Assembly: GCF_051058965.1 (NCBI RefSeq)
Contig: NZ_CP183924.1
Length of the DNA: 64,000 nt
Reading direction: 5' to 3' (one strand)
From: Corallococcus exiguus
GTDB taxonomy: Bacteria; Myxococcota; Myxococcia; Myxococcales; Myxococcaceae
In this document: one piece after another, positions 58,264-61,707 of the stretch
Position numbering within the stretch: position 1 is the first letter of the stretch
Layout: every line of letters begins with the position of its first letter
Translations under genes and position numbers: made by a program
The notes under the pieces: model-generated
Told to the model about the DNA's origin: nothing
The model's input: only the letters and a program-made list of their open reading frames with translations
The model's database searches: none

Positions 58264-61200
58264 TCAATGGGAGCGCGGGGCAGTTGTAAGCTGCCACGCC
58301 TTGTCACTTGAGCGTGTGAATGGGCCTCCCACGAGGTTCTGCTCCTGTTTGCAGAACGCGTATTTGACGAGCCCTTCTCTGTCAGCCTCGATCGTCCTGA
58401 GAACGAGTGGGCAGAGCGCCGAGAACTGTTCCTCCAGCTGAAGCGGCACGATGACGGGGGGCTGACCGACGGCCGCGAGAAGCAGTGCTCTCGCGCCAGG
58501 AATGAGCTCGATCCGCTTCAGTCGCCTTGGAAGTGGGATCCGGCTCATCGGCTGCCCGGAGCTCACCTGCCATACGAGCAATTGCGCGCCGGGGACCGCT
58601 TCCTCTCCAGCTCCCAGTGCCGGAAGCCAGCCGGCCACAGCCAGATCTTCGGAGGCTGAGTAGCCGAAGTAGGAGGGCGCATTGATAGAGCCCCAATTCC
58701 GAAGGCTGGAGTCCAAGACTCGGGCAACCTCACGACCGTCAGTAGCATTGAGGATGTGCACTGCCTCCACGCCATCCAGCTCTGCGGCCAACTCCGCGGT
58801 CGAACCTGCTGCGCCCCCCTCCGCAAGCGACACCGCCCTGCTTCGCTCCCCCAACGGCGGGCCACCGCGGACATCCCAGATGACGATGTTCCCCATAACA
58901 GATGACCGGGCCACCACTCGACTGTCAGAGGCAACGAACCGGAGGTCCATCACTGCGGCCTCGAGCCAATATGGCCCCAACACGAACTCCTTCTTCGTCC
59001 GGAGGTCCACTAGCTTCCCGCCCCCTCGTGTATCGCCAATCGCGAGAAGGTGACCGTCTCCAGACAGGGCGAAGTCTGGAGACGCCCCATGTTCAAGGAG
59101 CTGCCACTCCTGCCCAGCCAGGACTGCGATGGCACCGGAAGGTCCTCGTACGGCAACCGTCTGGCCATTCTTCGACACACGGAGCGCCGTGAGCACCTTC
59201 AATTGCGTGGGAACCGCGAGGCCAACGAGGTTCTCTCCTTCACTCCACTTGATAAGCTGCCCGGTCTTCGAGGCTGCGTACAGAGTGCCTTGACCTGGCG
59301 CTCCTCCCCATTGAATGAAGACCTCCCCTTCGAACCCATGAATGATGCCATTGAGCTCCCGGTCCTCGCGCCGCCACAGGGCCACCTTGCCGTTCACGTG
59401 GGCCGTCGCTACCAAGCGCCCGTCCGGTGAGACTGTGGCGTCGGTCGTACCGCCCAGCGCTTCCCCTGGAGTCGAGCGCCCAGGCACGAGGCTGAATCCA
59501 GGCGTCGGTTGGCGTTCCCAGATGTAGATGTTGGACATGTGCAGGCCTACGTAGACCTCACCCGTATCGGACTGCCGGAAGATCGGCTCCCCCCAGTTGA
59601 ACTCATTGCCCAACTGATGAGCCATCACCGACCGCCCGGTCGCGAGGTTATGGACCTCAAGGACATGGCGTATATCTTCGCCTGACGGGGTTGAGATCGT
59701 CGCTACCTGCCCGCCGTCGGCCGAGAAGCTCCCGACTCGTGGCCGCCCCTGCGTCTTGATCTCGCGGGAAGTCGACTCGCCCCCGGCCTCGATGGCGGTG
59801 ATGTCGAAGACGTGGAAGGCGGCGTCCGAGCCCCCGACAACAAGGAACCTACCGGCCGGGTCGAAGGCGACGTCGGGGTCCAAAACCGCACCCGCGAGCC
59901 TTCGAACCGGTCGACATTGTTTGCGCGATCCCGTACTACACCCAAGGTCGATGAGAAAGGAGCCCTCCTTCTGCTCTTCGTCTGACTCCGGGGCGACAAA
60001 GAGCCACCGGCCATTCGGCGAAACAACGGCGGCCCGCCGGAAGGCGTAGTCATCCTTGCGCATTCCGAAGTGCTTCCGCAGATCGTGGCTTGTGCGAACA
60101 CCCGTCTCGGTGCGGATGAGCGTCAGTTGAGCATCCGTACCGATTGCGCCAATGAAGGGAGGGGGCCGTTGATGCTGGCCGAAGAAGCGCCTGTATCCGA
60201 AGAATCTCCACGTGTACTTTGGAAAGGGCAAGGCGCGGATCACACCGGACCGGATATCGACCAGATGCAGGTTGTCGCCGTTCCATTCTTTTCCCGCCCA
60301 AACGATCAGTTGCTCGCCGCTCGCCGTGAATTGGACTGCAACAATCTCGGATGGGAACTTGAAGGGTAGCCTCCCTCCAGCGCCGTGGCGCCAGGTGTCA
60401 ATGACCCTCACGCCACCGTCCTTGTCGCCCATCGCGACCCTGCGCGAGTTCGGTGACATCGCGCAGGCCGTCAGCTCCGAGCTTCCTGATTCGATTTCAT
60501 CCAGGACTCGGCCCGACTGCGGCTCCCATAGGGCGGCCGTGTAGCGCTGCCCGGAATCGCCTTGGGGTCGCAGGGAGCCACCCGTCAGCAGGAGAGTCCC
60601 ATCCGCCGACAAGTCGAAGCACTCCACCTGCGGGTAAGTCCCAACGCCAAGCCGCAGACCTTGCTGCTTCGCTGTCACGAGTGCATTCGTCAGCGCAACG
60701 CGGAGACCGTTCGCGGTGGGCGACTGGGAGGACTTGAGCCGTAAGTAGGTGACCAGGGCAGCGGTCACGCTCTCCTCCAACTCATTGGACCTCCCGGCGG
60801 TCCCGGAGATCCGTTCCCCACTGGCAGCCAGCGCAGCTTCGACTGCCTTTCCGCGTAACGACTCGGCTGTCCGTTGAGCCTCAGCAGCCTGTTCAGCCTC
60901 CTTAAGCGCGCCTGCGGCTCGAGAGACCGCGTCAGCCCTGCGGGCCTCTGCCTCCTGGGCTTTGAGGTTCGCATTGACCGCTCGCGTCTCCGCTTCTGCG
61001 GCCTGGGATCCTGCGTCAGCGGCACTCCTCCGCGCTTCGATCTCACGGCCACGAGCGGCTGACGCATTTATCCCCGCTTCATCGGCAGTCTTTGTTGCGG
61101 CCGCCGCCCTTTCGTCCGCCGCTCGGGCGCGTTGGTCCGCATTGTAAACAGCATTCACTCTTTCACCTGCGACGAGGGCCGCCAGTAGGATGGCAGCACA

Positions 61201-61707
61201 TAAGGCCGCAGCCGTCCCCTTCAGCCGCGTGTTTCGCCTGATGAAGTCCGCAGTCTTGACGATCCTCCCCACCAGATGTCTGGACGCTCTCGCCTCAGTC
61301 AAAGCTTGCTGGCGTTCCTGCGAGACATAGAGCCCGTCAATCATGGGCTTCCACGTTGCCTTTCCGATGGCGCCACCGAAGTCGACCGGGATGATGGTCC
61401 GACCTGTCGGTAGGAAGACCTCCAGCTCCTTGCACACATTCTGCGATCCAGCCGAGCCGTGGGTTCCCAGCAGGACAAATGTGCCGCTGCGTCGGATTGC
61501 CCGCAGCAACTCGGGAGGAATCTCCCGACCCGGCTGCGTGCGCCACTGGTCGAGCAGGCACGAGAACCCGTGCCGCGACAGGCGGCGCGCAAGGTCGGCT
61601 GCGTAGATTGCGCAGTCCTCGCGCGAGTAGGAGATGAAGATGTCATCCCCGAAGAAGAATCTCTCCAATCTCTGGAAAAGCGTCTCGCGTCTTCTTGTAA
61701 TTGGCAT
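58264..61707 (-). CDS. TIR - coiled-coil/TM - beta-propeller (WD40/PQQ-like) protein (about 1148 aa)
   Basis: Start at MPITRRRETLFQRLERFFFGDDIFISYSREDCAIYAADLARRLSRHGFSCLLDQW (TIR). The TM segment is TAAALCAAILLAALVAGERV. An Ala/Glu/Arg coiled-coil comes next. Repeated blades follow (SADGTLLLTGG..., MSPNSRRVAMGDKDGGVRVID, VSPDGRLVATAHVNGKVALW, LSGDGHLLAIGDTRG...). The ORF as called (to 61962) includes a spurious N-terminal extension. Confidence 0.7.
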   Translation of the reverse strand: MPITRRRETLFQRLERFFFGDDIFISYSREDCAIYAADLARRLSRHGFSCLLDQWRTQPGREIPPELLRAIRRSGTFVLLGTHGSAGSQNVCKELEVFLPTGRTIIPVDFGGAIGKATWKPMIDGLYVSQERQQALTEARASRHLVGRIVKTADFIRRNTRLKGTAAALCAAILLAALVAGERVNAVYNADQRARAADERAAAATKTADEAGINASAARGREIEARRSAADAGSQAAEAETRAVNANLKAQEAEARRADAVSRAAGALKEAEQAAEAQRTAESLRGKAVEAALAASGERISGTAGRSNELEESVTAALVTYLRLKSSQSPTANGLRVALTNALVTAKQQGLRLGVGTYPQVECFDLSADGTLLLTGGSLRPQGDSGQRYTAALWEPQSGRVLDEIESGSSELTACAMSPNSRRVAMGDKDGGVRVIDTWRHGAGGRLPFKFPSEIVAVQFTASGEQLIVWAGKEWNGDNLHLVDIRSGVIRALPFPKYTWRFFGYRRFFGQHQRPPPFIGAIGTDAQLTLIRTETGVRTSHDLRKHFGMRKDDYAFRRAAVVSPNGRWLFVAPESDEEQKEGSFLIDLGCSTGSRKQCRPVRRLAGAVLDPDVAFDPAGRFLVVGGSDAAFHVFDITAIEAGGESTSREIKTQGRPRVGSFSADGGQVATISTPSGEDIRHVLEVHNLATGRSVMAHQLGNEFNWGEPIFRQSDTGEVYVGLHMSNIYIWERQPTPGFSLVPGRSTPGEALGGTTDATVSPDGRLVATAHVNGKVALWRREDRELNGIIHGFEGEVFIQWGGAPGQGTLYAASKTGQLIKWSEGENLVGLAVPTQLKVLTALRVSKNGQTVAVRGPSGAIAVLAGQEWQLLEHGASPDFALSGDGHLLAIGDTRGGGKLVDLRTKKEFVLGPYWLEAAVMDLRFVASDSRVVARSSVMGNIVIWDVRGGPPLGERSRAVSLAEGGAAGSTAELAAELDGVEAVHILNATDGREVARVLDSSLRNWGSINAPSYFGYSASEDLAVAGWLPALGAGEEAVPGAQLLVWQVSSGQPMSRIPLPRRLKRIELIPGARALLLAAVGQPPVIVPLQLEEQFSALCPLVLRTIEADREGLVKYAFCKQEQNLVGGPFTRSSDKAWQLTTAPRSH

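Follow-up and report, generated by a model that had tools for sequence, protein, structure and literature searches.

A predicted membrane-spanning TIR protein with a double WD40 propeller in a TIR-rich island of Corallococcus exiguus

The stretch of Corallococcus exiguus DNA analysed here (64,000 nucleotides of contig NZ_CP183924.1, assembly GCF_051058965.1; hereafter the window) carries on its minus strand, at 58264..61707 with the stop codon included, a gene whose translation of 1147 amino acids (aa) is composed of a TIR domain, a predicted transmembrane (TM) helix, a helical stalk and a double WD40 propeller. The open reading frame (ORF) spans 61962 to 58264, and the ATG at 61707, from which the 1147 aa are counted and the translation opens with MPITRRRETLFQRLERFFFGDDIFISYSRED, is also where the initial annotation of this DNA had placed the start. 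The C. exiguus protein deposited at NCBI (P0001) has the same sequence except for its start, which lies 31 codons upstream and gives 1178 aa. The only close relative (P0002, 73% identity, 1146 aa) begins at the equivalent methionine, upstream of which the encoded peptide is unrelated to that of C. exiguus and in-frame stops are present. Given the lack of conservation upstream and these stops in the homolog, ATG 61707 is better supported than the NCBI start as the model of the TIR-TM-WD40 gene; for the same two reasons we rejected both the NCBI start and the GTG at 61962 that opens the longest ORF. Comparison with the homologous DNA (L047) by the Nei-Gojobori method gave a dN/dS of 0.35 over the whole gene (TIR 0.29, stalk 0.71, propellers 0.25-0.42). 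Judged by these ratios, it is a genuine coding gene under purifying selection, evolving fairly fast. The scan of this gene for promoters and terminators was uninformative.

The TIR domain occupies aa 20-150 (61258..61650, minus strand), including a family-specific C-terminal extension (W119, G125, E131), and contains the putative catalytic Glu94 within the motif KELEVF. The N-terminal TIR proposed in the initial annotation was borne out by the Pfam family TIR_2 (PF13676), which matches aa 23-111 with an E-value of 1.8e-14 and 54.7 bits against a cutoff of 28. In the AlphaFold2 model, which was built with a 48-sequence family alignment and has a mean predicted local distance difference test score (pLDDT) of 67, the TIR is modelled with pLDDT >90 and shows the flavodoxin-like alternation of strands and helices, the fold extending over aa 20-140. 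Among PDB sequences the best match of aa 1-164 is the TIR of SARM1 (E 6e-4); the two are aligned in such a way that KELEVF stands opposite HKEIVTAL and E94 falls on the catalytic E642 of SARM1. This glutamate is invariant in 48 of 48 family members, as well as in every alignment made. NADase activity of the domain, as far as it can be read from these residues, is plausible.

The TIR domain is followed by the basic juxtamembrane motif FIRRNTRLKG and a single predicted transmembrane helix, aa 164-181, TAAALCAAILLAALVAG (61165..61257, minus strand). The Kyte-Doolittle (KD) hydropathy, averaged over 19 residues, has its maximum of 2.08 at aa 162-180 (LKGTAAALCAAILLAALVA); this is the sole window above 1.6, the runner-up reaching 1.41, and the single hydrophobic helix expected after the TIR is thus confirmed as unique. 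It is flanked by FIRRNTRLKG on its N side, with R161 and L162 nearly invariant across the family, and by GERVNAVY on its C side, and in the AlphaFold2 model it is embedded in an uninterrupted helix running from aa 143 to aa 225. A segment with KD>=1.6 was found at aa 120-300 in 108 of the 116 long homologs (>=800 aa), being the sole such segment of the protein in 101 of them. Since so many homologs carry it at the equivalent place, the hydrophobic helix of the C. exiguus protein is more than a chance feature.

The initial annotation had left it unclear which side of the membrane each domain faces, and this question could be narrowed by family-wide counts of flanking charges. Among the 108 members the 15 residues on the N side of the TM segment contain on average 5.7 Lys+Arg and 0.9 Asp+Glu, while the 15 residues on the C side contain 2.8 and 1.6, respectively; the flanks of the C. 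exiguus protein itself have five Lys+Arg (N side) and three (C side). The positive-inside rule therefore predicts a TIR on the cytoplasmic side, the side with NAD+, and export of the stalk and the propellers. We consider this N-in/C-out topology, with the TIR inside and the propellers outside, to be likely, bearing in mind that it is still a prediction.

The predicted transmembrane helix is continued by an Ala/Glu/Arg-rich helical stalk with a helical cap before the propellers (aa 182-356; 60640..61164, minus strand). AlphaFold2 places helices at aa 143-225, 236-302, 307-327 and 330-348. The long, helical, Ala/Glu/Arg-rich spacer described at the outset is thus present, but its designation as a coiled coil is unproven: LIVMFWY residues make up only 10% of the stalk, its composition being rich in Ala, Glu, Arg and Gln, and the heptad signal in the family is weak.

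The predicted sensor consists of two tandem seven-bladed WD40-type beta-propellers, aa 357-1060 (58528..60639, minus strand). Pfam WD40 and other beta-propeller families match aa 360-950 (PF00400, 42.8 bits against a cutoff of 27), and 55 beta-strands modelled by AlphaFold2 at aa 360-1059 correspond to about 14 four-stranded blades within some 700 aa. A Foldseek comparison of the modelled repeats with PDB retrieved tandem double WD40 propellers with E-values of about 1e-20 over 620-730 aligned columns, among them Utp and Pwp2 proteins, Aip1 (1nr0), Apaf-1 and the Nostoc propeller 2ymu. Of the WD40/PQQ-like blades initially annotated, the WD40 part holds, while PQQ-like blades find no support, as no PQQ family occurs among the Pfam matches of this protein or of other family members. 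Nor did Pfam reveal a leucine-rich repeat (LRR) in the protein, whose TIR is N-terminal, or any NTPase family such as the STAND-type P-loop NTPases, whereas a neighbouring gene product scored with nSTAND1 at E 9e-114 in the identical search. The C-terminal tail, aa 1061-1147 (58264..58527, minus strand), is modelled as low-confidence helices (pLDDT <50) and contains two conserved cysteines; it is 74% conserved with P0002.

The TIR-TM-WD40 architecture, which had been called unusual, proved not to be rare. When 1.84 billion representatives of 50% identity clusters were searched with a profile covering the TIR-to-TM module (alignment A2), 653 proteins, mostly of Acidobacteriota, reached E<=1e-30, and the number rose to 2949 with E<=1e-10 as the threshold; among the best 150 matches, most are 870-1250 aa long and are aligned through the TM segment. 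The proteins returned by the initial search, from Pyrinomonadaceae and metagenomes, had a TIR...WD40 layout and 860-1010 aa, and in each of them a basic stretch accompanied a strongly hydrophobic segment located at the equivalent position. A Pfam scan of 48 members detected TIR_2 in every one and WD40-type propellers in 47; longer members carry extra WD40 repeats and, in one case, TPR, with no other extra domain. The species-representative genomes yielded 42 loci (and no C. exiguus copy), mostly from Acidobacteriota (Pyrinomonadaceae, Blastocatellia, Thermoanaerobaculia), the others including Verrucomicrobiota (Udaeobacter, Chthoniobacterales), Flavisolibacter and a Polyangiaceae. At 34 of these 42 loci the protein has 870-1220 aa and the motif [FY]T+RNxR[LM]+, which is followed by a TM helix with KD 1.9-3.2. 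Within the family, no TM helix is weaker and no blades are more degenerate than those of the Corallococcus protein. The mean pairwise identity amounts to 45.8% in the TIR region versus 24% in the propellers, and some genomes harbor multiple copies (L010/L028, L018/L038, and L045 with two flanking genes).

On the evidence of these searches, the C. exiguus protein belongs, as a diverged member, to a large family of soil-bacterial proteins that is so far uncharacterised. The suggestion that its layout is absent from the characterised defence systems withstood the comparison: no full-length match was obtained with PADLOC v2, which includes Rst_2TM_1TM_TIR, the partial TIR matches being to bSEFIR (aa 22-66) and PDC-S66 (aa 22-63); NCBIfam gave only a partial TIR match, to ThcB4, with 27 bits against a cutoff of 220; and no description of a TIR-TM-WD40 family was found in the searchable literature.

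Several proteins related to the family differ from it in composition. P0161 (327 aa) and P0162 (317 aa) are short TIR-TM-only relatives without propellers, which are not simply fragments, since they are located on contigs of >200 kb. In proteins of 1600-2200 aa (P0019, P0046, P0109, P0119 and P0142) this TIR subtype occurs as an array of five to seven tandem units. Adjoining a family member in a Pyrinomonadaceae metagenome-assembled genome is a gene (L005, 13992-17294) for an 1101-aa protein that combines TIR_2 and WD40 repeats with a Ras/Roc-type GTPase domain.

The gene is situated in a segment of distinct base composition. At about position 52000 the GC content drops from approximately 0.70 to approximately 0.62, the segment having 62-63% GC in a genome of about 70%, and the drop is marked by a tRNA-SeC gene (51315-51413, plus strand), to the left of which are core genes such as GroEL. 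Right of the tRNA gene, all genes of the window (the TIR-TM-WD40 gene and four others) encode a TIR or TIR-like domain. The first of these four (51508-53790, plus strand) encodes a 760-aa protein with an SpbK-like C-terminal TIR (E 1.7e-28 with the SpbK model of PADLOC), in which Pfam recognises nothing within the N-terminal 420 aa even when E<=10 is allowed. It is followed by the gene of a 1384-aa TIR-nSTAND1-WD40 protein (53840-57994, plus strand; nSTAND1 at the E-value given above), a classical NLR-like conflict protein that is convergent with the TIR-TM-WD40 protein; the possibility that the latter is a recent duplicate of this neighbor was rejected, as BLASTP shows generic TIR/WD40 similarity only. 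On the other side of the TIR-TM-WD40 gene are a gene of a 138-aa ThsB-like TIR protein (61959-62375, minus strand) and a gene of a 453-aa protein with a TIR-like N-terminal domain and MAP3K_TRAF_bd/TPR-S (62388-63749, minus strand). The longest ORF of the latter, 62388-63890 (500 aa, TTG start), overcalls the gene, its homologs all starting at the methionine at 63749. Taken together, these features give the region the appearance of a genomic island at tRNA-SeC that is rich in TIR genes. The 3' end of tRNA-SeC has no second, att-like copy within the window, and the far boundary of the island should therefore lie beyond position 64000.

A syntenic island with 90-92% nucleotide identity to positions 51001-64000 of the window is present in Corallococcus exercitus (L048, JABFJV010000007.1). 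It contains at least eight TIR or TIR-like genes and differs in gene content, having an additional ThsB-type gene adjoining the tRNA; past the point corresponding to the window end, it continues with the TIR genes ThsB (128 aa), TIR_2-Y4lF and CAP12-PCTIR. All that persists of the TIR-TM-WD40 gene in C. exercitus is the last ~580 bp, which cover the C-terminal tail, together with ~46 bp of downstream DNA (L048 12157-12769 corresponds to window positions 58844-58218, 89% identity). The reading frame of this remnant is broken by a frameshift and an in-frame stop, and the rest of the gene has been replaced by an unrelated 355-bp segment (L048 11802-12156). Given this decay, the TIR-TM-WD40 gene is best described as an accessory gene of the TIR-rich island, subject to loss.

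The gene neighbourhoods of homologs reveal one recurrent association and no dominant neighbour family, as shown by a census of 94 neighbors. A TPR-S homolog lies beside the family member, on the identical strand, in about 7 of 40 loci (L001/L036, L003, L004, L034, L009, L032 and L045), four of which also have a patatin gene upstream. The Pyrinomonadales locus L032 repeats the trio of ThsB-like TIR, TPR-S and TIR-TM-WD40 genes (26% identity to the window gene for ThsB-like and 58.6% for TPR-S) and has pYEATS and patatin-TIR genes in addition, while in L045 the TPR-S gene is flanked on both sides by TIR-WD40 genes. In the window the ThsB-like gene is 12 bp downstream of the TPR-S gene, and a 250-bp gap separates it from the TIR-TM-WD40 gene. 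The TPR-S family itself is huge (>7756 matches) and keeps an identity of about 60% (59% or more) across phyla; it stands alone in Polyangiaceae and Nitrospiraceae genomes, and its gene persists in C. exercitus after the decay of the TIR-TM-WD40 gene. On the basis of this census, the stand-alone TPR-S genes and C. exercitus, we reject the possibility that TPR-S, ThsB-like or patatin genes are obligate operon partners: the association recurs, yet it is not a rule. It may reflect either island co-residence or optional coupling, and the TIR-TM-WD40 gene, from its genomic contexts, appears to work as a single-gene unit.

Two more features of the TPR-S proteins deserve mention. Their conservation is unusually strong for a gene of a conflict island; Pfam states that the protein, whose TPR-S/MAP3K_TRAF_bd part was formerly DUF4071, has its homologous counterpart in the regulatory region of ASK-type MAP3Ks of animals. 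The long TPR-S proteins encoded next to TIR-TM-WD40 genes also bear an extra domain of ~200 aa (L001 7327-7908, L003 7162-7752, L004 6870-7478, L034 9267-9881) with invariant GxASGGD, WQRNNLW and DGxGGTxD motifs and with no Pfam or PDB sequence match; its SLOG/LOG-like appearance, noticed by eye, received no support from profile hidden Markov models (HMMs) and was rejected.

The explanation that we prefer, with a probability of roughly 0.5, is that the TIR-TM-WD40 protein is a single-chain, single-pass N-in/C-out TIR receptor serving in conflict or immunity. We infer its topology, NADase activity, activation by clustering, ligand and immune role as follows. The SARM1-like TIR would reside in the cytoplasm and pass, through one unbroken helix, into the TM segment and the ~170-residue stalk, which would hold the two propellers in the periplasm. 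There the propellers could bind a macromolecule derived from an invader or a competitor in the cell envelope, and the binding would cluster or re-pack the stalks and bring the cytoplasmic TIR domains together. Bringing TIR domains together is a known activation route of TIR enzymes. The clustered TIR domains would then cleave NAD+ via Glu94, and either the loss of NAD+ might arrest growth or a signal derived from ADP-ribose might be produced. The protein would act alone, as the product of an accessory, rapidly turning-over conflict or immunity gene. The receptor-like mode of evolution that the alignments suggest, with a conserved TIR half, a fast-diverging sensor half and paralogs in some genomes, was counted in favor of this explanation, as was the position of the gene within the TIR-rich island. 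More tentatively, with somewhat less assurance than for the receptor as such, we suppose that the double WD40 propellers could be periplasmic pattern-recognition sensors, which would perceive a phage, predator or competitor before or during entry and signal to the TIR NADase; such proteins would be Toll-like in logic, not in ancestry, and would be present in hundreds of lineages of soil bacteria.

A number of observations weigh against a receptor of this kind. As to the enzymatic activity, the tryptophan four residues before the catalytic glutamate is absent: position 90 is Asn in the C. exiguus protein, and the other residues at this place in the family are A, Y, P or F in addition to N. In SARM1 and plant TIRs the tryptophan at -4 makes the NAD/ribose contact (W71, with E75 as the glutamate, in the numbering of PMC7075850), and this glutamate is also frequent in some non-enzymatic Toll-like receptor (TLR) TIRs (PMC7075850). 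As to export, the TM helix of the C. exiguus protein is Ala-rich and, with its KD of 2.08, the weakest of the family; no diagnostic periplasmic domain was found among the family members scanned with Pfam; the WD40 repeats are of the canonical G-beta type, which in bacteria usually occurs within cytoplasmic STAND proteins; and the WD40 module with its helical cap resembles that of the cytoplasmic TIR-nSTAND1-WD40 neighbor (53840-57994), which has no hydrophobic segment (KD maximum 1.32). Exported proteins are expected to show a bias towards an even number of cysteines. In a parity test for export, an even count was found in 69 of 126 members, which is not significant (p=0.33). As to the immune role, the 94 neighbors showed no enrichment of known defence genes in PADLOC, only kinases and TPR-S N-terminal domains being matched, and no relatives were found in the viral contig collection.

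Four of the objections to export, namely the shared WD40 module and helical cap, the canonical repeats, the lack of an even-cysteine bias and the Ala-rich, moderately hydrophobic helix, would fit an all-cytoplasmic TIR-WD40 sensor, either membrane-associated or soluble, which would be comparable to TIR-STAND-WD40 proteins minus the NTPase and whose helix, instead of spanning the membrane as a signal-anchor, would serve in oligomerisation or anchor the protein peripherally. We regard such a protein as unlikely. Most family members have 20-23 strongly hydrophobic residues (KD up to 3.2) after an Arg/Lys cluster, that is, a textbook signal-anchor, and a single spanning helix, as predicted in the 101 of 116 homologs that have no other such segment, necessarily separates the two halves of the protein across the membrane. 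A weak independent indication is the cysteine density in family members, which is 0.40% after the helix versus 1.07% before it.

A transmembrane signalling receptor might also serve a purpose other than immunity, by analogy with kinase-TM-propeller receptors such as PknD. Its TIR would then be a protein-protein adaptor or would make a regulatory nucleotide, and the signalling could concern envelope stress, development or social behaviour. Such a role would be in keeping with the missing tryptophan of the NAD pocket and with the neighbors in Acidobacteria, which are mostly housekeeping-type genes. Myxobacteria and Acidobacteria, moreover, have large signalling repertoires. It is, however, difficult to reconcile with the invariance of E94 in about 50 diverged sequences, with the accessory nature of a gene that lies in an island of almost nothing but TIR genes and has decayed in a sister species, and with the combination of fast sensor divergence and a dN/dS of 0.35, both typical of conflict genes; its chances thus seem low.

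Finally, it is quite improbable that the TIR-TM-WD40 protein senses and signals within a multi-gene system in which the products of the upstream TPR-S and small ThsB-like TIR genes execute the response, since the same-strand TPR-S neighbors and the trio repeated in L032, which would support it, are confined to about 7 of 40 loci with varying order and spacing, the highly conserved TPR-S family stands alone in other genomes, C. exercitus keeps both putative partners although the TIR-TM-WD40 gene is decayed, and the 250-bp gap separates that gene from the ThsB-like one.

To our knowledge, the cytoplasm is the site of action of nearly all TIR immune proteins characterised in bacteria and, more generally, of most immune sensors of bacteria. 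If the N-in/C-out TIR receptor that we prefer is real, then bacteria possess envelope-level sensing coupled to NAD+ chemistry, and the receptor layout of animal TLRs arose independently. The family, which is abundant in the poorly studied soil phyla Acidobacteriota, Verrucomicrobiota and Myxococcota, is readily testable, offering a single gene, a clear catalytic residue and a clear topology to map. The intact gene of C. exiguus and the decayed remnant in C. exercitus, in islands that are otherwise syntenic, provide a natural comparison.

Of the known proteins, those of the TIR-STAND-WD40 type, in which the STAND module is NLR-like, are represented in the same island by the product of 53840-57994, and they share with the TIR-TM-WD40 protein the N-terminal TIR_2 effector, the helical cap and the C-terminal multi-blade WD40 sensor. 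The latter protein has no NTPase switch; a TM helix and a ~170-aa stalk stand in its position, and the sensor is predicted to be outside. TIR-STAND-WD40 proteins have been described among the conflict systems of multicellular bacteria (Kaur et al., eLife 2020, PMC7159879; eLife 2021, PMC8195603). With the Toll-like and interleukin-1 (IL-1) receptors, whose architecture we take from PMC7075850, the protein has in common a single membrane pass, an extracytoplasmic repeat sensor and a cytoplasmic TIR, the sidedness in our case being predicted, and the TIR activity of these receptors is thought to be triggered by receptor clustering, as we propose for the C. exiguus protein. They are, however, type I proteins with LRR or Ig domains and a C-terminal TIR, while the bacterial protein is expected to be an N-in type II protein with WD40 repeats and a TIR nearest to the enzymatic SARM1. 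The common layout should therefore be convergent, because only the TIR domains are homologous. SARM1 itself, for all the alignment of its catalytic glutamate with that of the C. exiguus protein, is a soluble ARM-SAM-TIR octamer, and of the two only SARM1 has the tryptophan at -4.

Among the anti-phage systems, Thoeris ThsB, SpbK and ThcB4 of type III Thoeris also use a TIR as the sensing or signal-producing part and give weak partial HMM matches; unlike the TIR-TM-WD40 protein, they are small soluble proteins with partner effectors, and all scores of the protein against their models are far below the cutoffs. It matches no ThsB model, and neither the scan of five window genes nor the genes called on the C. 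exercitus contig included a ThsA-like one. Rst_2TM_1TM_TIR is a multi-gene phage defence in which a TIR is accompanied by membrane-spanning segments and which has no propeller. PknD of Mycobacterium tuberculosis, a kinase-TM-NHL propeller protein, has an N-terminal cytoplasmic enzyme, one TM helix and a C-terminal extracytoplasmic propeller. The topological logic is equal to that predicted for the C. exiguus protein, while the enzyme is a kinase and not a TIR, the propeller is of another type and no sequence relationship exists. The name Rst_2TM_1TM_TIR for a defence system comes from 10.1101/2024.10.26.620412. By its domain content, with no NTPase, LRR or kinase, the TIR-TM-WD40 protein belongs neither to the TIR-STAND proteins nor to TLRs, PknD-type kinases or Thoeris, and what distinguishes it from the other TIR-plus-WD40 conflict proteins is probably the transmembrane anchor, which is predicted to place its sensor outside the cytoplasm.

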